Assembly: GCA_018655015.1 (NCBI GenBank)
Contig: JABIKK010000013.1
Location: forward strand, 44,071-108,070
Reading direction: 5' to 3'
DNA length: 64,000 bases
Source: Candidatus Woesearchaeota archaeon
GTDB taxonomy: Archaea > Nanobdellota > Nanobdellia > SCGC-AAA011-G17 > UBA489
Shown here: positions 1 to 27,584 of the stretch, in pieces
Position numbering within the stretch: the first letter of the stretch is position 1
Layout: each line of letters begins with the position of its first letter
Position numbers and translations under genes: made by a program
The notes under the pieces: model-generated
Seen by the model: the letters and a program-made list of their open reading frames with translations, nothing else
Databases searched by the model: none
What the model was told of the DNA's origin: nothing

Positions 1-128
1 AATTAGGACAAAGTTTCTTAGTACGGTTTAGGACCAATACCAAGAGTCCAATCCTCTCGACTGCTTCAGCCCCACCCTAAAGCCGATTTGTGGTTACAAG
101 GCACGACTACTGCCCCGGCCTAGCCTGC
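1..128 (-). ncRNA. Signal recognition particle (7S/SRP) RNA, 5' Alu-domain portion; gene continues beyond window start
   Basis: Minus-strand read 'GUCGUGCCUUGUAACCACAAAUCGGCUUUAGGGUGGGGCUGAAGCAG' closely follows the Alu-domain helix 3/4 pattern of SRP RNAs (e.g. B. subtilis scRNA 'GUGCCCUGUACCUGCAAUCCGCUCUAGCAGGG'). The segment is GC-rich and structured within an AT-rich genome. An AT-rich stretch (133-165) lies upstream of the inferred 5' end. Confidence 0.5.
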
Positions 129-273
129 AAGAAATTTAAAGAAAAAGAATATTTAAGTCTATTGTTAATCAATCAAAGTTAATTCACAAGTTCTACTTGT
201 TCCTCGGAAATTATTCCAAACTAATAAATTGAATCCCTCATTATTGTCTCCCCTTCCAGAATAATTATCAAAT

Positions 274-822
274 TCACCATCTGTAAAAAAAACAAGTACT
301 CCAAATATTAAACACGTGCTGAGTAGTACCGTCATCATCAGTACCATAATTATCCCATAATCTCCATCTTCCATTACTTGGAGCATAGTACAAAATATAT
401 GGTCCGCGATTAGCTGCTTCTTTTTGATATGTTGCAGTCCATTGAGTCATACCTATCCTAACCTCGCATCCATCAAAATCACCACAAAGGTCAGTTAAGA
501 TCGCATGATCTATTTCCTTATTGGTCCCACCATAATTTGCTGCAGTCGCAGTTATATGGTACCTCTCTAAATTAGTTGTATATTCCTCGGTCACATCATC
601 AATATCATGTCTAGCCTTAGCAAACTTGCCACCAAGCTCATTATTATCAATAGCCTCTTGTAAACTTTTTTCAGACCCACCTAAATTAACATATAAATCA
701 CCAGCATTATGTCCAAATGTATTGCCCCCTACACCTTGAACTAATAAGGTTCCTCCAATTAAAATAATCAAAACACTAAGAATATACATGTGCTTTTTTT
801 CAATATTAATCTTTAATTCCAT
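274..822 (-). CDS. Small secreted protein, member 1 of the conserved-leader family (signal peptide MELKINIEKKHMYILSVLIILIGG..VQG)
   Basis: N-terminal ~45 aa almost identical to ORFs 824-1396 and 1398-1919, with charged n-region, hydrophobic h-region and a VQG cleavage-like site. The C-terminal half is divergent and may be frameshifted (overlapping ORF 165-386). Confidence 0.6.
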   Translation of the reverse strand: MELKINIEKKHMYILSVLIILIGGTLLVQGVGGNTFGHNAGDLYVNLGGSEKSLQEAIDNNELGGKFAKARHDIDDVTEEYTTNLERYHITATAANYGGTNKEIDHAILTDLCGDFDGCEVRIGMTQWTATYQKEAANRGPYILYYAPSNGRWRLWDNYGTDDDGTTQHVFNIWSTCFFYRW

Positions 823-823
823 T

Positions 824-1396
824 TTATTTTAATTCAAACCAAGTATGAATCATCCCTTCTACAAAGTGAGCCTTATATGTTGAACCAGAAGGAATAATTA
901 TAGAGATGTCACAACTTGCATAACTTCCCCTACCCTCATAAACCTTTTTAGAATCCACATAAAAATTTAATTCACAGCCATCCATACTATTATAACTTTC
1001 ATCACCAGTAATAACCACCATAATGGGCCTATCTTTATTATTAGTATACAACACATTTGAAGCCCTTGAGGATTCAACATTTGCCCAATTTTGACCTACT
1101 CCAACACTACCCGAACTAACTAAATCATCAGAAGTCGCAATACTATCATCATCTATTGCTTCTTGTAAAGTTTTTTCTATTGCATTAATAGTTACTAATG
1201 AACCAAAGTCCCCATCAGAGACTGCACTTTGTAAAGTTTTTATTACTCCTCCCCCAACATCTACATAAATGTCCTCGGAATCATGTCCAAAATTATTAAC
1301 ACCTTGTCCTTGAACAAACAACATTCCACCAATTAGAATAATTAAAACACTAAGAATATACATGTGCTTTTTTTCAATATTTATTTTTAGTTCCAT
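824..1396 (-). CDS. Small secreted protein, member 2 of the conserved-leader family
   Basis: Leader nucleotide sequence ~100 % identical to member 1 over ~35 nt (aaaacactaagaatatacatgtgcttttttt). Shares mature N-terminus QGQGVNNFGHDS and C-terminal PSGSTYK...ELK with member 3. Confidence 0.7.
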   Translation of the reverse strand: MELKINIEKKHMYILSVLIILIGGMLFVQGQGVNNFGHDSEDIYVDVGGGVIKTLQSAVSDGDFGSLVTINAIEKTLQEAIDDDSIATSDDLVSSGSVGVGQNWANVESSRASNVLYTNNKDRPIMVVITGDESYNSMDGCELNFYVDSKKVYEGRGSYASCDISIIIPSGSTYKAHFVEGMIHTWFELK

Positions 1397-1397
1397 T

Positions 1398-1919
1398 TTA
1401 TTTTAGCTCATGCCAAAGTTGGATCCCGCCATGTCCCCTGTAAGGATCTGAAGTTACTTTATATGTTGAACCAGCAGGAACAAGGATATAAATTGGACAA
1501 GTCTTAGAGTACTTGTCATTGTTGTTGCTATTTCTTGCAACACGCTCACTGTCTATATAAAAACTAATTTCGCAACCATTCACATTAGGATTAGGATTCC
1601 ACGTAGTTACGGAAACCATAATTGGCTTACTTCCCGAATTAGTATAATCTGTATCCAAAGACCTACTAGCCTTAACGTCAGTCCAAGTTTGACCAACACC
1701 AAGTCCATTTGCAACATCATCAGAGGTAACTAACTTTCCATTGTTTATTGCTTCTTTCAAGCTCATATCAACACCACCAACAGTAACATAGAGCTCATTT
1801 GAATCATGTCCAAAATTATTAACTCCCTGTCCCTGAACAAACAGGATGCTTCCGATTGCTACAATCAAAACACTAAGAATATACATATGTTTCTTTCGAA
1901 CATTAATTTTAATTTCCAT
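1398..1919 (-). CDS. Small secreted protein, member 3 of the conserved-leader family
   Basis: Start placed at the second Met (MEIKINVRKKHMYILSVLIVAIG..VQGQGVNNFGHDS). C-terminus GCEISFYIDS...AGSTYK...WHELK is homologous to member 2. Confidence 0.7.
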   Translation of the reverse strand: MEIKINVRKKHMYILSVLIVAIGSILFVQGQGVNNFGHDSNELYVTVGGVDMSLKEAINNGKLVTSDDVANGLGVGQTWTDVKASRSLDTDYTNSGSKPIMVSVTTWNPNPNVNGCEISFYIDSERVARNSNNNDKYSKTCPIYILVPAGSTYKVTSDPYRGHGGIQLWHELK

Positions 1920-2012
1920 CTTACCTCTCCAACAAAAACAACACAAATATACTATTTAAACCTTTTTCAAATACTCCAAAAAGCTATTAAAACCCATAAA
2001 ACCCTTCTAAAA

Positions 2013-3719
2013 ATGGAAAAAAAGAAATTCATGTTAAAGCTATCCAAAATGAGCTTCAAAACTCAAGAGGAATTTAACAAAACTAAACATCAATTGGCTA
2101 GAGAGTTCCACCTATCAGAAGTTCCAAAAAATGCAGAAATTCTATCAACAATACCTGAAAAAGACAGAAAAAAACTAGAAAACATTCTTCAAAGCAAACC
2201 AGTTAGAACAATATCGGGCGTAGCCCCTGTTGCAATAATGGCTGCACCAATAGCATGTCCACCACAAGCAAAATGTACATATTGTCCAGGCGGACCAGGA
2301 TCAATATTTGGAAACACTCCTAAAAGTTATACTGATGGAGCACCTGCAGTAAAAAGAGCTATTAGAAATAAATACGATCCATACTTACAAGTATTCAATA
2401 GATTAGAACACTATCTACTTCTCAAACATAATCCTTCAAAAGTTGAACTAATAATAATGGGTGGGACTTTTCCAAATTTTCCAAAAACTTACAGGGATGA
2501 TTTCATAAAGTTTGCAATGAAGGCAATGAATGATTTCTCAGATGAATTCTTCACAAATGAAGGAAAACTAAAAGAGAAAAAGTTCAAAGAGTTCTTCATG
2601 CTTCCAGGAAAAATAACCTCTCCAGAAAGAGAAATGGAACTTCAAGAAAAGATGACTAAATTAAAAAATAAAAATAAGACCACCCTGGAAGAAGAACAAA
2701 GAAGAAACGAAAATAAAAAAATAAGATGTATTGCATTAGTAATTGAAACAAGACCAGATTGTTCTATGAAAGATGAGATAAACGAGATGTTAAGAATTGG
2801 AACCACAAGAGTAGAGTTGGGTCTACAAAGTCTAAGAGACGAAGTACTAAAAGAAGTAAAAAGAGGGCATTCAGTTGATGATGCTATAAAATCAACTCAA
2901 CTTCTAAAAGACTCTTTAATGAAAATAACATACCACATGATGTTGGGGCTTCCACTAACAAATGAAAAACAAGACATTGATACCTACAAAGAACTTTTCA
3001 CAAATCCAGACTTCAAACCGGATTCACTAAAAATTTATCCCTGCCTTGTAATGGCCGGAACACCCCTCTATGAGGATTATAAGAAATGTAAATTCCAACC
3101 AATAAACACTGAAGAAGCAACTAAAAGAATAATCGAAATAAAAAAAGAAATTCCAGAATACTGCAGAATAATGAGAATTCAAAGAGACATCCCAACATTC
3201 ATGACGGAAGCCGGTGTCGATAAAACAAATCTGAGGCAACTAATACAACAAAAACTACACAAGGCTAAACAAAATTGTAGATGTATTCGATGTAGAGAAC
3301 CAAAAAATAGAGAAGTTAGTTTAGATCATGTGAAAACAAAAATAAATAAATACAAAGCTTCAAACGGAACAGAATTCTTTATCTCAAAAGAAGATACAAA
3401 AAATGATATTCTATTGGGATATGCGAGACTAAGAATCCCTTACAAACCATTCAGAAAAGAAATAACAGACAAAACTGCAGGAATCAGAGAACTACATGTA
3501 TTCGGAACATCTCTAGACCTAAAAAACAAACCAAAGACGAGTTCAGAATCACAACATAGAGGATATGGAAAAGAATTAATGCAGGAAGCAGAAAAAATAG
3601 CCAAAGAAGATTATGATAAAAACAAAATGGTAGTTATTTCAGGAATAGGTGTAAGAGAATACTACAACAAAATTTTAAAATACAAACAAGACGGACCTTA
3701 CGTTTCTAAAAAATTATAA
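2013..3719 (+). CDS. elp3: tRNA uridine(34) acetyltransferase Elp3 (radical-SAM + GNAT)
   Basis: Radical-SAM cluster motif 'CPPQAKCTYCPGG' typical of Elp3, plus a C-terminal GNAT region. Start set at the internal Met (MEKKKFML) to avoid overlap with the upstream family gene. Contains a K/E-rich low-complexity insert. Confidence 0.8.
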   Translation: MEKKKFMLKLSKMSFKTQEEFNKTKHQLAREFHLSEVPKNAEILSTIPEKDRKKLENILQSKPVRTISGVAPVAIMAAPIACPPQAKCTYCPGGPGSIFGNTPKSYTDGAPAVKRAIRNKYDPYLQVFNRLEHYLLLKHNPSKVELIIMGGTFPNFPKTYRDDFIKFAMKAMNDFSDEFFTNEGKLKEKKFKEFFMLPGKITSPEREMELQEKMTKLKNKNKTTLEEEQRRNENKKIRCIALVIETRPDCSMKDEINEMLRIGTTRVELGLQSLRDEVLKEVKRGHSVDDAIKSTQLLKDSLMKITYHMMLGLPLTNEKQDIDTYKELFTNPDFKPDSLKIYPCLVMAGTPLYEDYKKCKFQPINTEEATKRIIEIKKEIPEYCRIMRIQRDIPTFMTEAGVDKTNLRQLIQQKLHKAKQNCRCIRCREPKNREVSLDHVKTKINKYKASNGTEFFISKEDTKNDILLGYARLRIPYKPFRKEITDKTAGIRELHVFGTSLDLKNKPKTSSESQHRGYGKELMQEAEKIAKEDYDKNKMVVISGIGVREYYNKILKYKQDGPYVSKKL

Positions 3720-4192: not shown

Positions 4193-7192
4193 TTAAGTTT
4201 TAACAATCTCCACTTCTAACTTGCCCGATCTAAACATATAAAATAACATCAATGCAAGTATTGCAAGAACCCAACTAAACATACCAAATACAGGACCTTT
4301 AACAGAAGGTTCCAAACTACAATCAACTCTTTCTAATGGATCAACTGAACAAACTCCAGTAATACAAGAGTTACAATTTCTAGTTCTCTCGCCATTCTCA
4401 CAATCAGTCCAAGCTCCACAAACCCATGCGTATCCTCCACCTAAGGAAGAACAGCTTGGTTCTACAACATCAGGATAATTCTTAACATCGCAAATATCAG
4501 CTACACAAGTTCCAAAATCAGGATTACAAGATTCGCCACTAGCACATTGAACTTCATTACTTAATTCATTACAACCATTACCATCATAATCACCACAGAA
4601 AGCAACTCCTACCGAAGTACACACTGCCGTGCCCCTAACACAATAAGAAGAACAACCGTCTCCACTTCCAGAACCACTCATTCCTTCAAACAAACAAGTA
4701 TCAGTACAACCATCACCACTAACAGTGTTTCCATCATCACATTGTTCGCCAGGATCAATATTACTATCTCCACAATAGCTGTCTGTAGCAGTAACAGTTA
4801 ACAAATCACTAGGAGGTGCAATTCCGCCACCAAAGTTATAGCCCTTGGCTCTCCATCTAGCATCATCAGGATCAGGTCCAGGATTATTATTCTCGGAAGT
4901 CCAATTAGTGGTTCCGGAAGTTCCAGAAACAGTTATTGGACTAGGTTTAACAACTGAAAGTTCTTGAGTATCTTCATTGATAACATCAACATCAAAGACC
5001 AGATTATTACATCGATCATCACCATCTAAATCTAAAGTTAAAACAACATTGTCTCCTCTTTCCGCAGTCAAAGTACTCCACTTAAAGCTAGCACCTTGTA
5101 ATGCAAGAGTACATTCAGAGCTACCCCCACCACCTTGATCACCAGTTTCTAAACAAGTATTCCTATCATTTGAATCAATATCACAAGCATTACCACAAGG
5201 ATCTCCAGTAGTTGAACCAGTACTTCCATCTTCATTATCTTGAGAGTTTTCACAATGTTCAACATCATAATCGACACCATTAACATTCACAGATTTACCT
5301 GCACAATCTGCATCATCTACACAAGCATAAGTTGAAACATTTCCTTCTGGATTAGATAAAGTATTAACATCTATACAAGTTCCAAAAGAGCCGTAGTTAG
5401 GTGTAATTGCACAATTATCAAGAGCATCTTCAATTCCATCCCCATCTGTATCAACAAAAGGTTCTATCTTACAGAATTCATCACAGCCATCCCCATTAAT
5501 ATTATTTCCATCATCACATTCTTCCGCACCTTCTTGAACACCGTCACCACATTCTCCAACACTTCCAGGCTCTAAATATTCACAACATAATTTATTGGAA
5601 AAATAACTACAATCTGCAGCATGAACATTATAATTTCCACCGTTTCCATCACCAAAGGAAAGTAAACATTCTTTTGCGCCACAATCAGAACTTCCAGCAA
5701 CTGTGTCACACTGAACTTTATCATAACAAACTTTTTGATAATATCCCTTCGGAGGTAATTCACTATCTGTTGATTCGGGAGCATAAATATGTCCTCCTCC
5801 AATCAAAGTCCCAGTAGCATGACCCTCAGTTCCGTTTCCAGCCAAGGTACTAACATCATTACCATTTGCAACCCTAATTGCATCATTCCAAGAATCCGCA
5901 ATAAATAAATTTCCAAATGCATCTAAATCTACACCTCTAACATGTGAAAATTTAGCACTCAAAAGTGGACCATCAACAAAGCCAGTTGTTCCATCACCTG
6001 CAAAATCACTTATTGTAGATCCAGCAACATCTATTTTCTTTATCTTTTGATTATTAGTATCAGCAACATATAATGAGTCTGAAGCAATATCATAAGTTAA
6101 TGCATAAGGTGCAGTGAAACCCGCTCCATAAACAGAACCGCCAACTCCTCCAGCATAATATGAAACTCCAAAACTGACCATGTCTAAACTCTTAATCCGA
6201 TTATTATCTTTATCTGCAATATAAACTAAATTCTCAGAAGGATTGTAACTAACACCAGTAGGATTGCTAAACTTAGCTTCGGGCCCAATAACTCCAGCCA
6301 AATCACCTTCAACACCACAAGTACCTGCAATTGTTGTAACGGCTCCATCAGCCAAACCGACTTGTCTAATACAGTGATTACCCGTATCTGCAACAATTAA
6401 ATTCCCAGAAGGACCAACCGTAATTCCAGTAGGTTGATTAAATCTAGCAGCGCCAGAAATTCCATCGCTTGTCCCACTTGTACCACAAGCCCCTGCAAAG
6501 GCTCCAGAAACACTCCCATCATTCAAGAACACCCTTCTAATACAATGGTTATCTCTATCTGCAACATAAAAATAATCTCCAACTAAAACATCTCTAACTA
6601 AAACTAATCCTGCAGGATAATTAAACTTAGCAGTTGTAGCTCCACCAGGAGTAGTTCCACTTGTACCACAAGTTCCACTAAAATGTTCGGCCAGACCATT
6701 ACCACCAATCTCCCTTATACAATGACTCATTGCATCCGTAACATAAGCAGTTGTAAAACTATTTGTGTCGACAACCGTTTCAATCCCATTGGGTTCATAA
6801 AATGTTGAAGAAATACTTAACCCATTTGAAATATACGCAATTAAATTAGAATTATCAGCATAGCAACTTCTCGTAGGCCCATCAACTCTTAAACTAAATG
6901 ATAACTCGGCACAATAATCCACACTTTCTCCAGAACCAATCATAGAAATATGAGAATTATTTTTCAAAAATAAACCAACAACATCTTTATCGCCACAAGC
7001 CCCTGCAACACTCTCTTCAACAACCATACCCGTTACACTTCCAGGCCCTAAAGAACTAACAACATCTGCAACAGAAGGAGAACTTAAATCATCAATATTA
7101 AATGCCAGAAATGATGCAAATATAACTAAAAACGCTGGAAATAATATACGATGCTCTTCTCTCATCAAAACAACCTCTTCAATACAATTCAA
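4193..7192 (-). CDS. Large secreted/cell-surface protein with NHL repeats and Cys-rich CxxxCDDGNxxxGDGC repeats, C-terminal TM anchor
   Basis: N-terminal signal peptide. Repeated 'YVADxxNHCIRRV/NHCIRQV' NHL-type beta-propeller blades. Multiple 'CDDGN..GDGC' cysteine-rich repeats. Hydrophobic C-terminal segment (VFGMFSWVLAILALMLFYMF). Promoter-like AACATTTATAAG at 7205-7216 suggests the true start may be M10 (7165). Confidence 0.7.
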   Translation of the reverse strand: MNCIEEVVLMREEHRILFPAFLVIFASFLAFNIDDLSSPSVADVVSSLGPGSVTGMVVEESVAGACGDKDVVGLFLKNNSHISMIGSGESVDYCAELSFSLRVDGPTRSCYADNSNLIAYISNGLSISSTFYEPNGIETVVDTNSFTTAYVTDAMSHCIREIGGNGLAEHFSGTCGTSGTTPGGATTAKFNYPAGLVLVRDVLVGDYFYVADRDNHCIRRVFLNDGSVSGAFAGACGTSGTSDGISGAARFNQPTGITVGPSGNLIVADTGNHCIRQVGLADGAVTTIAGTCGVEGDLAGVIGPEAKFSNPTGVSYNPSENLVYIADKDNNRIKSLDMVSFGVSYYAGGVGGSVYGAGFTAPYALTYDIASDSLYVADTNNQKIKKIDVAGSTISDFAGDGTTGFVDGPLLSAKFSHVRGVDLDAFGNLFIADSWNDAIRVANGNDVSTLAGNGTEGHATGTLIGGGHIYAPESTDSELPPKGYYQKVCYDKVQCDTVAGSSDCGAKECLLSFGDGNGGNYNVHAADCSYFSNKLCCEYLEPGSVGECGDGVQEGAEECDDGNNINGDGCDEFCKIEPFVDTDGDGIEDALDNCAITPNYGSFGTCIDVNTLSNPEGNVSTYACVDDADCAGKSVNVNGVDYDVEHCENSQDNEDGSTGSTTGDPCGNACDIDSNDRNTCLETGDQGGGGSSECTLALQGASFKWSTLTAERGDNVVLTLDLDGDDRCNNLVFDVDVINEDTQELSVVKPSPITVSGTSGTTNWTSENNNPGPDPDDARWRAKGYNFGGGIAPPSDLLTVTATDSYCGDSNIDPGEQCDDGNTVSGDGCTDTCLFEGMSGSGSGDGCSSYCVRGTAVCTSVGVAFCGDYDGNGCNELSNEVQCASGESCNPDFGTCVADICDVKNYPDVVEPSCSSLGGGYAWVCGAWTDCENGERTRNCNSCITGVCSVDPLERVDCSLEPSVKGPVFGMFSWVLAILALMLFYMFRSGKLEVEIVKT

Positions 7193-11254: not shown

Positions 11255-11340
11255 GCGGGGGTCCCATAGTTAGGTCAATTGGACTAGGTTGAGGGCCTAG
11301 TGGCTTAGTGCCTGCGCAGGTTCGAATCCTGTCCTCCGCA
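11255..11340 (+). tRNA. tRNA-Leu (anticodon GAG), type II with long variable arm
   Basis: Manually folded cloverleaf: acceptor GCGGGGG/CCTCCGC, anticodon stem CTAGG/CCTAG with loop TTGAGGG, T-loop TTCGAAT, 15-nt variable arm. Confidence 0.85.
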
Positions 11341-13891: not shown

Positions 13892-14356
13892 TTAATCTTT
13901 TTTACAATAAACTACATTGGTATACGCAGGATCATGAACTGCCCATGGACCAGATCTCCAAGCCCCATCTGCCGTCCCAACTTCAGAGCTGGATTCGTCC
14001 TTCCATTCTAACTTAATTTTTGCAACCTTAACTGTCCCACTACAACAATCAGCACCAGTGCTATATGTGTGAACTCGGTATTCATTACTTCCTCCCACTA
14101 ATCCAACATTAGCCACATCATCACCACGGGGGAATCTTCCATCTAATTCAGTATACCTCGTCCAACCAGTAGGACAATCCGTATCAAACATAGCAACCAT
14201 CCCTGTAAAAAGTCCATCTAAGCCTTCAATTTGATCAGCAGTATGCCCATAATTATTAACGCCCTGACCTTGTACAAAAACTATAGTTCCAAAGGCTAAC
14301 ACTAAAATGATAAGAAGATACATATGCCTCTTTTGAACTGAAATGTTAATATTCAC
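13892..14356 (-). CDS. Small secreted protein, member 4 (diverged) of the conserved-leader family
   Basis: 'MNINISVQKRHMYLLIILVLAFGTIVFVQGQGVNNYGH' leader homologous to members 1-3, with an unrelated Cys-containing C-terminal domain. Inserted antisense between rpoN and the SprT-like gene. Confidence 0.65.
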   Translation of the reverse strand: MNINISVQKRHMYLLIILVLAFGTIVFVQGQGVNNYGHTADQIEGLDGLFTGMVAMFDTDCPTGWTRYTELDGRFPRGDDVANVGLVGGSNEYRVHTYSTGADCCSGTVKVAKIKLEWKDESSSEVGTADGAWRSGPWAVHDPAYTNVVYCKKD

Positions 14357-16293: not shown

Positions 16294-16410
16294 GAGGACG
16301 ACCATGGCAGCTTGGTTCCACCTGTTCCCATTCCGAACACAGCAAGTTAAGCAAGCTCACGTTCCAAGTTGTACTGCACTTTGTTGTGGGAACCTTGGTT
16401 AGTTGTCCCT
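16294..16410 (+). rRNA. 5S ribosomal RNA (stand-alone, not linked to 16S/23S)
   Basis: Contains the universal 5S core 'CCCATTCCGAACACAGCAAGTTAAGC' and '...GTACTGCAC...GGGAAC'. Terminal helix GGACGAC/GTTGTCC. Confidence 0.85.
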
Positions 16411-17109
16411 TTTATTTTCTAATTTATTTAACAAATCCGCAAATTTAACAGGATTTTTAGAGGGAGTTGCATTGTAACTTTCAACCATCAAATCAAGAAT
16501 ATATTGTTTCATAGGATGTGTTAGAGGAACGTACTTTCTAAAGAGGAAAATATTTCTTCTTCCTGTAATTCCTAAAACCCAGGTGTCATCTTTCAGTCTA
16601 TTGTTCCTCCTCAAACGATTACATGAAATGCCTAGAGAAAAAAGAATTTCACCAATCTCCTTCAAAATTCCATAAGAATTAGAATAAAAATTTACATTCC
16701 TCTTCCATGCATTTTCAGACAGACTGAATCTTAGTCCAACACAACCTTCATCATCGAAAAAAGAACCAATAAATGCAAGCTTAATACCAATGTTAGCTTC
16801 TAGAACTTTTTTTGGAATCTTTATTTTATTACATCCAAACGATTCAAGATAATTAAAAAAAAACTCAATGAGCGCCCTTCTCTGAAACTGCACAAAGGAT
16901 GTACCTGAGTTGACCGTGCCATAAGTAAGGTGAATTTCTCCAAAAATTTCAATAAGATCCTTTTCGAATTGACTAAGCAAAGCCTTACAAGTATTGTTGT
17001 ACCTTGCATATTTAGGACTAATGTGGCCATCTCCACAAAGTTTAGCCAAACATCTTGCAAGAGCGACGTTCATCATAGCGTAATAATGAAAACATGGAAG
17101 ATAAAACAA
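16399..17109 (-). CDS. Free-standing double-motif LAGLIDADG homing endonuclease
   Basis: Two LAGLIDADG-type motifs, 'LAKLCGDGHIS' and 'IGSFFDDEGCV', at the spacing expected for a monomeric two-domain enzyme. The stop overlaps the 3' end of the 5S rRNA antisense. True start is probably M12/M13 (~17076). Confidence 0.75.
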   Translation of the reverse strand: MFYLPCFHYYAMMNVALARCLAKLCGDGHISPKYARYNNTCKALLSQFEKDLIEIFGEIHLTYGTVNSGTSFVQFQRRALIEFFFNYLESFGCNKIKIPKKVLEANIGIKLAFIGSFFDDEGCVGLRFSLSENAWKRNVNFYSNSYGILKEIGEILFSLGISCNRLRRNNRLKDDTWVLGITGRRNIFLFRKYVPLTHPMKQYILDLMVESYNATPSKNPVKFADLLNKLENKRDN

Positions 17110-21704: not shown

Positions 21705-21781
21705 TCTTTTGATTAAAGAATTAAATCAAAAAAGATTAAATCACAAGATTTAAGAAAGAATATTCTAAATTTAAATTACCT

Positions 21782-21865
21782 GTGGGAGTGCCGGAGCGGT
21801 CAAACGGGATGGCCTCAAGAGCCATTGGCTTAGTGCCTACTAAGGTTCGAATCCTTGCTCCCACA
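21782..21865 (+). tRNA. tRNA-Leu (anticodon CAA), type II
   Basis: Manual cloverleaf: acceptor GTGGGAG/CTCCCAC, D-arm CCG-GAGCGGTCAAA-CGG, anticodon loop CTCAAGA, T-loop TTCGAAT, long variable arm. Confidence 0.85.
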
Positions 21866-21875
21866 TTATTAAAAA

Positions 21876-26363: not shown

Positions 26364-27029
26364 ATGATCAATTCTCCAGAGAAAATTAATAATCCATTAT
26401 TTTTAGAATTATACGGAGCCTTACTTGGAGACGGTTGGATTGGAAGATATATCAATAAAAAGAAGGACAAAGAGTATCCATACTATCTTCTAGGCATTAG
26501 TGGAGATTCTAGATTAGATAAAGATTATTTTGATTTTCTTTCCCATACTATAGGGAAATTATTTGGCATTCATCCAACAATAAGAAAGAAAAAGTTAGAA
26601 AATACTATTGAACTAAGAGCCTACAATGAAAAAATTGTAAAGTACCTAAACTCAGAACTTAATTTTCCAATTGGTAAAAAGGGAGAGTTCAAAATTAAAA
26701 GAGAGATAAACAATGAATGGGGAAAAGTTAAACATGTCATAAGAGGTATATTCGACACAGACGGGTCAATATATTTCGATAAAACTCCAGTCGGACGACC
26801 TTACCCTACAATCTCAATCAGCATAACTTCCAGGCCCGCCCTAAAACAAATTAGAGATAATCTTTTAAAACAGGGTTTTAAGGTACAAAATAGAAAAGAT
26901 CGACCTGAGATAAAATTAAAAGGTAGAAAACAATTAGAAAAATGGATGAAAGAAATAGGATGTAGAAATAACAGACATTTTTCAAAATACAAGAAATTCA
27001 TACAAGGGCCCGTAGCTCAGCTTGGATAG
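26364..27029 (+). CDS. Free-standing double-motif LAGLIDADG homing endonuclease
   Basis: Motifs 'LYGALLGDGWIG' and 'IRGIFDTDGSIY'. The last 8 codons overlap the 5' 24 nt of tRNA-Arg(CCU). Confidence 0.75.
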   Translation: MINSPEKINNPLFLELYGALLGDGWIGRYINKKKDKEYPYYLLGISGDSRLDKDYFDFLSHTIGKLFGIHPTIRKKKLENTIELRAYNEKIVKYLNSELNFPIGKKGEFKIKREINNEWGKVKHVIRGIFDTDGSIYFDKTPVGRPYPTISISITSRPALKQIRDNLLKQGFKVQNRKDRPEIKLKGRKQLEKWMKEIGCRNNRHFSKYKKFIQGPVAQLG

Positions 27030-27080
27030 AGCATTTCCCTCCTAAGGAAAGGGTCGCAGGTTCAAATCCTGTCGGGTCCG
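27006..27080 (+). tRNA. tRNA-Arg (anticodon CCU)
   Basis: Manual cloverleaf: acceptor GGGCCCG/CGGGTCC, D-arm GCTC-AGCTTGGATA-GAGC, anticodon stem TTTCC/GGAAA with loop CTCCTAA, T-loop TTCAAAT. Confidence 0.85.
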
Positions 27081-27407
27081 CTAATAAACTTCTATTCTAC
27101 CTTTCCCCAATATATAATGAATTTTCGCATAAGTTGTTCTGCCTTCCCCCTTATCTCGGAACAAAACAAAATGGTAATCTGGAAGAGTTAATTTAGGATT
27201 GTCAGCACTTTTACGGCAACTATCTAGAAAAATACCATCAAAATGATCTGCGTTATCCTCAAGCAAGCCCATAGCTTCTTCAGCAGTGAGAACCTGGCCA
27301 AAAAACAAAGAACCATTCTTTCTTCCAGAATGAGTGTGCTCTGCAAAAGAAACTGCTAAATCCTCGAGAACCTTCAAACTGTCAGTATTAAGAGATCTTC
27401 TAACCAT
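27081..27407 (-). CDS. Hypothetical protein (orphan ORF between two tRNA genes)
   Basis: 108-aa ORF, slightly GC-richer, no recognisable motif. Confidence 0.35.
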   Translation of the reverse strand: MVRRSLNTDSLKVLEDLAVSFAEHTHSGRKNGSLFFGQVLTAEEAMGLLEDNADHFDGIFLDSCRKSADNPKLTLPDYHFVLFRDKGEGRTTYAKIHYILGKGRIEVY

Positions 27408-27511: not shown

Positions 27512-27583
27512 GCGCTGGTAGTGTAATGGCTAGCATAGGAGCCTTCCAAGCTCTTGATCCGGGTTCGAATCCCGGCCGGCGCA
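27512..27583 (+). tRNA. tRNA-Gly (anticodon UCC)
   Basis: Manual cloverleaf: acceptor GCGCTGG/CCGGCGC, anticodon stem GGAGC/GCTCT with loop CTTCCAA, T-arm CCGGG-TTCGAAT-CCCGG. Confidence 0.85.
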
Positions 27584-27584
27584 C

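Follow-up and report, generated by a model that had tools for sequence, protein, structure and literature searches.

We analyzed a 64,000-nt stretch of contig JABIKK010000013.1 of Candidatus Woesearchaeota archaeon (hereafter the window, whose positions serve as coordinates throughout), concentrating on a group of small genes that an earlier note on this DNA had singled out. Mechanical open reading frame (ORF) calls place three of these genes at 274-822, 824-1396 and 1398-1946, abutting on the minus strand, and a fourth at 13892-14356; they are called m1, m2, m3 and m4 here. All four begin with a common N-terminal module and continue into C-terminal domains, or heads, of several kinds, and their products are probably small modular binding proteins (adhesins), secreted or located at the cell surface, of a marine Woesearchaeota archaeon. 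The ORF list, a motif scan and hidden Markov model (HMM) searches agreed with the earlier description of three back-to-back genes and a fourth sharing an N-terminal module, and sequence comparison likewise upheld the joining of a conserved export-type module to unrelated C-domains. A six-frame regular-expression scan and two local HMM searches recovered exactly four ORFs within the 64 kb. The local module HMM scored them at E 3e-23 to 3e-36, with the next best ORF of the window at E 0.17, and a feature confined to four ORFs with so steep a gap is therefore real and far beyond chance. The observation of the earlier note was thus partly confirmed, the feature being genuine but overstated in the respects given below.

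The gene boundaries required some correction (Table 1). The start of m3 is most likely the ATG at 1919 and not the TTG at 1946, as had been assumed, because homologues start there and because GGAGAGGT and the TTTAAATA box lie upstream. The mechanical ELP3 ORF (1806-3719, 637 aa, plus strand) overlaps the m3 start region; the real ELP3 start is the ATG at 2013, given homologues of 563-568 aa and the extent of the Pfam match, so that ~93 bp remain between ELP3 and m3 for a divergent promoter region. The m3/m2 and m2/m1 gaps are 1 nt each (TAA-A-ATG), so the three genes probably form a single operon. The TATA-like TTTATAAA upstream of the m4 GTG suggests that m4 has its own promoter and a short-leader or leaderless transcript.

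Table 1. Positions of m1-m4, their parts and the flanking genes in the window
Feature	Position	Strand	Description
m3	1398-1919	-	173 aa; first gene of operon; N-module, one LQ/LK unit, tail-fibre-tip domain
m2	824-1396	-	190 aa; N-module, two LQ units (internal duplication), tail-fibre-tip domain
m1	165-822	-	~218 aa; frameshifted; C-domain of unknown fold, unrelated to m2/m3 (RYHITATA...CGDFDGCEVR...RTCELTLID)
m4	13892-14356	-	154 aa, GTG start; N-module without LQ unit; Cys-containing C-domain (CPTGWT..LDGRFPRG..GGS.EYR)
N-module of m3	1728-1919	-	residues 1-64
N-module of m2	1205-1396	-	residues 1-64
N-module of m1	631-822	-	residues 1-64
N-module of m4	14216-14356	-	residues 1-47
m2 tail-fibre-tip domain	827-1111	-	residues 96-190, ends W-F-E-L-K-stop
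m3 tail-fibre-tip domain	1401-1703	-	residues 73-173
T8 homopolymer (A8 on + strand) in m1	285-292	-	frameshift site
Putative expression signals of m3-m2-m1 operon	1923-1960	-	read from sequence; function inferred
TATA-like TTTAAATA	1953-1960	-	upstream of m3 ATG at 1919
GGAGAGGT	1923-1930	-	upstream of m3 ATG at 1919
TATA-like TTTATAAA	14380-14387	-	24-31 nt upstream of m4 GTG; read from sequence, function inferred
SRP RNA gene (signal recognition particle), 5' part, cut by window edge	1-130	-	conserved downstream boundary of variable array
ELP3 (radical SAM plus GNAT)	2013-3719	+	divergent from m3; conserved upstream boundary of array

The module starts in all four proteins with a basic M-E-L/I-K-I-N-I/V-x-K-K/R-H, followed by a 17-residue hydrophobic segment with a central Gly, V-Q-G-Q/V-G and then N-x-F/Y-G-H. 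Sharing of the N-terminus had been noted before, but its extent was underestimated: the module of m1-m3 continues to about residue 60-64 (G-x3-(S/T)-L-Q/K-x-A-I) with a strand-turn-helix-like unit, Y/I-V-x-V/L-G-G-x3-(S/T)-L-Q/K-x-A-I/V-x-x-G, which m4 lacks. The internal duplication in m2 lies at 1147-1241 (residues ~52-83) and involves a 22-24-aa unit, V-x-V/I-x-G/A-x-E/I-K-T-L-Q-x-A-V/I-D/S-D-G-D. A repeat search of the DNA returned a 175-nt unit in three copies (677-851, 1251-1425 and 1774-1948), with 78% and 65% identity to the reference copy. Codons 1-43 of the paralogue pairs showed 60-80% nucleotide identity, with about 0.95-1.4 synonymous substitutions per site (dS) and 0.13-0.50 nonsynonymous substitutions per site (dN), so the leader is not almost identical in nucleotides, as had been claimed. 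We rejected recent gene conversion as the source of the common leader, since a dS of ~1 between paralogues points to a leader kept by selection at the protein level.

Pfam and NCBIfam scans of the four proteins gave nothing above noise, with no match over residues 1-64. When 20 relatives were compared with curated libraries, no entry covered the module, and a search of the module profile against PDB sequences produced noise only. In the literature on the motif and on DPANN surface or tail-fibre proteins we found no description of the family. The statement of the earlier note that the N-terminal motif belongs to no described family therefore stands for Pfam, NCBIfam, PDB sequences and that literature.

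The heads of m2 and m3 are of one type, 39% identical to each other, and the alignment reproduces the C-domain motifs previously reported for the pair (GCE..FY.DS, GSTYK and ELK). By homology, these heads are members of a phage tail-fibre tip family. The m2 and m3 heads matched PHROG phrog_18834 at E 5.8e-16 and 1e-14, and phrog_26525, annotated 'tail fiber protein', at E 2e-7 and 8.5e-5. tblastn searches located matches in seven phage genomes, at the 3' end of tail fibre or tail genes where the record was annotated, and several of the matched genes directly follow baseplate J/wedge genes where the neighbours were annotated. The homologous stretch comprises ~95 residues of phage tail fibre tips such as Scuro gp47, Cato gp42 and 'tail fiber protein H' of Pseudomonas phage PG1; with gp47 of Acinetobacter phage Scuro, BLASTP gave 36% identity over 107 aa, including a terminal W-x-E-L-K/R. 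The phage tips and the archaeal heads have in common the motifs G-x-G/D-Q-T/N-W-x-N/D-V, Y-T-N, P-I-x-V, I-I/V-P-x-G-S/A-T-Y and the terminal W-x-E-L-K/R (WFELK in m2, WHELK in m3), and the domain occupies the extreme C-terminus in both. An hhalign comparison of the archaeal alignment with six phage C-termini returned a probability of 99.65% and an E value of 4.6e-25, over m2 residues 96-190 only. A Foldseek search with the m2 model against viral models retrieved mostly tail fibres, with 27 matches at E<=1e-3; the profile of the m2/m3-type head against PDB sequences gave noise only.

The known homologues of the tip come from phages of Proteobacteria, not from archaeal viruses, and beyond the tip the archaeal proteins differ from phage fibres. 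A Sec-type leader and a GH/LQ stalk replace the baseplate-attachment N-terminus and the shaft repeats, the genes lie among housekeeping genes and not after baseplate genes, and no downstream gene for a fibre-assembly chaperone is evident. No cluster of virion tail or baseplate genes was found around m2 and m3, whose neighbours are ELP3, the SRP RNA gene and members of the family. With a different context, a different leader and a different stalk, m2 and m3 do not count as phage fibre genes. We also considered a phage-derived stalk, as a BLASTP match to phage SHI extended weakly over the stalk and the PF22337 repeat. The PF22337 model ('Phage tail fiber repeats') matched phage SHI and none of the archaeal proteins, and we do not claim a phage origin for the stalk because profile-profile alignment confines the homology to the tip.

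The C-domains of m1 and m4 were previously described as unrelated, and BLASTP indeed detected no similarity of either to m2/m3 or to each other. The m1-type head carries conserved His/Asp/Cys motifs of unknown role. The m4 head had no Pfam match at E<=1, and its profile search against PDB sequences yielded noise only. From the CPTGW...DGRFPRG motif we had guessed that m4 might carry a phage tail collar domain (PF07484), and this was dropped for want of any Pfam match and of a phage match better than E 0.01.

The m1 gene is not a 182-aa gene, but a ~218-aa gene split by a +1 frameshift. Its homologues extend ~40 residues further ('...CYFTDGEFDNY...RTCELTLID'), and the missing tail is encoded in the frame of an ORF at 165-386, with the upstream part in the frame of 274-822. 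The two frames join at the T8 run, where removal of one T restores a 218-aa protein, and the SRP RNA begins ~35 nt beyond the true m1 stop. Two independent public assemblies from ENA (L012 and L013, 99.985% and 100% identical to the window) carry this T8 as well, so the frameshift is not a local assembly error. Orthologues of m1 read TAT-TTT (Tyr-Phe) at this site, without a long T run. The part of m1 beyond the frameshift is still conserved relative to the orthologues (dN 0.12), suggesting that the lesion is recent or reversible; the T8 run marks m1 as a recent pseudogene or else as a gene turned on and off by slippage.

To size the family, a 64-position leader profile was searched exhaustively against 1.84 billion representative proteins (clusters at 50% identity). 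It matched 1,148 representatives at E<=1e-3 and 258 at E<=1e-10, and word-indexed searches returned close relatives only (6-8 per query). The VQGQGV(N/S)N subfamily itself is rare, with 5 loci in 3 Woesearchaeota metagenome-assembled genomes (MAGs) among the GTDB species genomes and 3 loci in JGI metagenomes. Many of the profile matches are 250-575 aa long and were matched over three stretches, which shows the GH...LQ-x-AI unit to be a repeat, present in up to three copies per member of the wider family.

Features and payloads of the family were counted on the top 147 representatives. An N-terminal hydrophobic segment is present in 142 of the 147, and the His in 140 of 143 aligned sequences; conservation exceeds 90% for this His and for the L-Q-x-A in the helix. 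The family consensus reads K-K/R, a hydrophobic segment with a central G, and A-Y-T/S-Q-x-I/V-P-N-P-G-H-G/S-A-D-x-V/I-x-V-x-V-N/D-G...T-L-Q-x-A-I. The Ala-Tyr conserved after the segment (VQG-Q in the clade of the window) is placed as at signal-peptidase sites, and the median Cys content is 4.6%. A role of the invariant His in contacting a metal or another subunit, such as some trimeric phage fibres show, is speculation. All members named by their source are archaeal, labelled 'hypothetical protein' and assigned to Pacearchaeota, Woesearchaeota or 'archaeon'. The closest named relatives of the window proteins and loci are Candidatus Woesearchaeota MAGs, which fits the earlier idea of a multigene family in an archaeon of small genome, here one of the DPANN group. 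The leader/stalk module appears to define an uncharacterised family, restricted among named members to Woese- and Pacearchaeota.

The same leader precedes other heads in the relatives. In P0007 it is followed by a 'GNVGVG..P..LDV.G' fibre motif, which matched a tail-fibre PHROG at E 2.8e-4, and then by a Cys-rich end; P0008 is Cys-rich, and P0019 and P0020 have a variant leader ('...PNPGH'). Among the 147 representatives, TSP_1 domains occur in 16, and other payloads include Lcl_C, Laminin_G_3 (a ConA-like lectin), BNR/Sortilin, Resistin and SASA domains, a match to the phage adhesin GP38 at E 3e-18 and ~10 PHROG families annotated as tail fibre, host specificity or fibre assembly. As far as domain matches allow them to be identified, the payloads of the family are overwhelmingly binding or adhesion modules. 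Nothing in these searches tied the leader to a housekeeping family, or the four heads to a single enzyme family.

In all relatives examined, ELP3 and the SRP RNA gene bracket the array, whose content varies. The window and L012 have m3, m2 and the frameshifted m1 in this slot; L022 and L023 have an m3-type and an m2-type gene; L024 has an m1-type gene, cut, and an m2-type gene; and L004, L005 and L006 have a Cys-rich type, an m1-type and a P0007-type gene. The flanking DNA of the window and L004 is 81% identical next to ELP3 and 96% identical next to the SRP RNA gene. The SRP RNA fragment of the window matches Rfam RF01857 over model positions 1-132 of 317 (E 1e-9), and the full gene stands at the same place in L004, L006, L022 and L024. 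The m4 slot, between a SprT-like gene and the RpoN/S9/L13 genes, contains single-copy m4 orthologues in three Woesearchaeota MAGs; the same slot of a TARA contig (L018, 5328-6008) contains P0101, which joins the same leader to an unrelated 160-aa head. Judging by this synteny, the head has been replaced in place at the orthologous m4 position.

Comparison of orthologues gave dN/dS values of 0.17 for the m3 tip, 0.23 for the m2 tip, 0.06-0.07 for the m1-type head, 0.10-0.35 for the leaders and 0.05-0.09 for ELP3. The payload had been called rapidly diversifying, a view that these numbers contradict, as the heads, at 0.06-0.23, do not exceed the leaders; positive or diversifying selection on the heads was rejected for the same reason. 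Since the orthologues within each head type are under purifying selection, the diversity is modular, with whole heads gained, lost or replaced behind a constant leader rather than diverging rapidly.

The surroundings in the window are of a housekeeping kind and include ELP3, ribosomal protein and RNA polymerase subunit genes, RpoN, a SprT-like gene, a 5S rRNA gene and four tRNA genes. RpoN is immediately beside m4, with the SprT-like gene and the RNase P Rpr2 subunit gene on its other side. The 5S rRNA gene stands alone at 16294-16411 (plus strand), and the tRNA genes, all on the plus strand, are those for Leu-GAG (11255-11340), Leu-CAA (21781-21866), Arg-CCT (27006-27081) and Gly-TCC (27512-27584). 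A tRNA integration site beside the array was sought and none was found, the conserved flank being the SRP RNA gene. Two genes from the array, 4193-7192 (minus strand) encodes a 999-aa protein that contains NHL repeats and DUF4215; it is syntenic in relatives (984-993 aa) and is probably another large surface protein. P0008 of a related Woesearchaeota MAG (L002, 9849-10525; GCA_964343875.1, CAYFJW010000002.1) starts 4 nt inside the end of the Sec61-beta gene. Two loci of the family thus abut components of co-translational export (SRP RNA and Sec61-beta), possibly by coincidence. Beside P0008, at L001/L002 10526-13711 (minus strand), lies a helicase gene of ~1,060 aa with an intein carrying a LAGLIDADG endonuclease domain, and near it are also a HicA/HicB toxin-antitoxin pair and the gene for a surface protein with DUF2341/Laminin_G_3.

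We propose the following route from gene to function for the binding proteins. The leader, with its basic n-region and hydrophobic segment, would direct the protein across the membrane in a Sec-type, N-in manner, and would then either be retained as an N-in/C-out anchor or be cut after VQG. By inspection, the leader has the features of a substrate of Sec and signal peptidase I, namely the basic n-region KKH, the 17-residue h-region and V-Q-G before Q-G (V-x-A before Y-T/S-Q in the family), and the small residues after the segment are compatible with cleavage. A retained anchor would also be compatible with the length of the segment and with how unusually conserved the n- and h-regions are, and we slightly favor anchored or envelope-associated display over free secretion. 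The stalk of the four proteins would consist of the invariant G-H and of zero to two units (hydrophobic strand, G-x3, (S/T)LQ-x-AI-x-x-G), with GH/LQ units in zero to three copies overall, and would space the head from the envelope, leaving the exchangeable C-terminal head to bind a ligand on another cell or surface. For m2 and m3, binding is suggested because their heads are homologous to the distal end of tail fibres, which binds receptors, and they would be oriented like a fibre, with the N-terminus attached and the C-terminal tip free. Specificity would shift through swaps of whole heads at fixed chromosomal slots and not through rapid point mutation, and m1 may currently be off through its slippage-prone T8 run. 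In an ultra-small DPANN archaeon, the likely use would be attachment to partner cells or surfaces.

Several observations weigh against this reading. The functions assigned to the four proteins, from export and surface location to oligomeric state, ligand and any part in host attachment, are deduced entirely from sequence. The homology to phages ends at the tip, the stalk being not detectably phage-like by hhalign. The m1-type head found no match in phages, PHROGs, Pfam or PDB sequences. The sole phage match of the m4 head, at E 0.01 by tblastn, was to the large protein Pas28 of Actinoplanes phage phiAsp2, which itself lacks a Pfam match, and it was centered on '..P.GW....LDGR.P.G......GG'; an enzymatic or toxic activity of the m1-type and m4 heads may therefore be entertained. 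The AlphaFold2 models, built as the earlier note had envisaged, were poor. The m2 model (8-sequence alignment) had a mean predicted local distance difference test (pLDDT) score of 50 with only its C-domain moderately confident, so the fold matches to tail fibres depend on that domain alone, and the m4 model (9-sequence alignment, mean pLDDT 49) was unusable. Finally, the n-region is more conserved than an ordinary Sec leader needs, hinting at a function outside the proposed route.

Among the competing explanations, the one closest to ours holds that the proteins are soluble secreted lectin-like proteins, cut from a Sec leader into mature forms of 130-190 aa starting at Q-G-V-N-N-F-G-H and acting at a distance, for instance as a coat on partner cells, as a block on viral receptors or in scavenging. 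It differs from our model only in the fate of the leader, and we regard it as rather unlikely, albeit worth keeping in view. It would be suited by the small residues at -3/-1, which are V-Q-G in these proteins and V/x-x-A across the wider family and come directly after the 17-residue, Gly-centered h-region, and by the absence of a C-terminal anchor from proteins that end with the head domain; the n- and h-regions are nevertheless conserved beyond what a disposable signal needs, and the anchored N-in/C-out geometry mirrors that of tail fibres. Pilus or filament subunits, with the N-terminal segment as a polymerisation domain of the type IV pilin or donor-strand type, would account for the conserved hydrophobic helix and the small size of the proteins, and the contig of one relative also encodes T2SSE/T2SSF genes ~7 kb away. 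We consider them very improbable, given that no class III signal precedes the segment (the position before it is taken by His in the window genes and by H, I, Y or N in the 147 relatives, where Gly or Ala after Lys/Arg would be expected), that no pilus genes lie near the window loci and that a variable globular head on every subunit is atypical of major pilins.

The other two alternatives concern the heads and the origin of the loci. The earlier note had offered an effector, adhesin or toxin family that serves host interaction or competition. The adhesin and host-interaction part gains from the tail-fibre tips and the binding payloads, and the toxin and effector part loses, as toxin domains and room for immunity genes are both lacking. 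A polymorphic toxin family, in which a conserved trafficking N-terminus delivers variable toxic C-domains in cell competition, would match the architecture (a conserved N-terminus, unrelated C-termini and a tandem variable locus) and could make use of the His/Asp/Cys motifs of the m1-type head. Yet Pfam, NCBIfam and PHROG searches found no toxin, nuclease, deaminase or peptidase domain in the four proteins, the payloads identified in the 147 relatives are binding domains or esterases, and the heads are under purifying selection. Moreover, m1-m3 all carry the same leader and stand 1 nt apart, so no immunity genes are interleaved, and we judge the toxin explanation quite improbable. Remnants of an integrated archaeal virus, or moron genes, would make the fibre-like genes viral rather than cellular and would explain the similarity of the m2/m3 heads to tail fibre tips in sequence and fold. 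Such an origin is hardly credible for loci flanked by ELP3, SRP RNA, ribosomal protein, RpoN and SprT-like genes, in a synteny conserved across species ~81% identical in DNA, with no baseplate, capsid or integrase genes nearby. The leader matched no viral contig of IMG/VR, virion fibres have no Sec-type hydrophobic N-termini and the homology is confined to the tip; we rejected a viral origin of the loci on the housekeeping synteny and the IMG/VR result.

Modular surface binding proteins thus remain our preferred explanation, and they can be taken further, although only as a tentative possibility. The GH/LQ module may be an undescribed display system of Woese- and Pacearchaeota for interchangeable receptor-binding heads, several of them captured from the fibres or adhesins of tailed phages, with the unusually conserved, strand-like n-region (M-E-L-K-I-N-I-x-K-K-H) as a dedicated sorting or assembly signal and homopolymer slippage, of the kind seen at the m1 T8 run, switching single heads on and off. 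If so, these proteins would be cellular 'tail fibres' that decide which partner cell an episymbiont grips. To our knowledge, little has been learned about how DPANN archaea recognize and hold their partners, and the majority of their surface proteins lack annotation. The locus reveals a large uncharacterised family with a simple leader-plus-stalk signature, whose members are candidates for DPANN cell-cell recognition, and through it one tip domain is recorded both from the fibres of bacteriophages and from a cellular gene of an archaeon. The small tip domains lend themselves to expression and binding assays, searches with the leader motif could recover the variable attachment repertoire of DPANN genomes, and the two syntenic slots (ELP3 to SRP RNA and SprT-like to RpoN) provide a natural setting in which to study how cassettes are exchanged in reduced genomes.

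Modular surface binding proteins are already known as a kind; what appears to be new is an archaeal display module with phage-type receptor-binding tips. The overall design may resemble BclA of the Bacillus exosporium nap, C1q/TNF-like heads and fibres of the adenovirus and reovirus type, a similarity that would be at the level of the fold only and is drawn from a low-confidence model; the collagen-like stalk of BclA-type fibres has no counterpart in the archaeal proteins. Polymorphic toxin systems likewise combine a conserved N-terminus with unrelated C-termini in tandem arrays, but the window family lacks toxin domains and immunity genes and its identifiable payloads are binding domains. A further parallel is with the modular adhesins and variable surface loci of host-associated microbes, among which diversified surface proteins have been reported for Nanoarchaeota (PMC6142677). 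Such systems resemble the window family in a conserved export or anchor part with variable binding parts, in several paralogues per genome, in loci that vary between strains or species and in a copy disrupted at a homopolymer. The window family differs from them in its distinct, uncharacterised leader/stalk sequence family and in varying by replacement of whole domains at conserved slots, with each domain under purifying selection.

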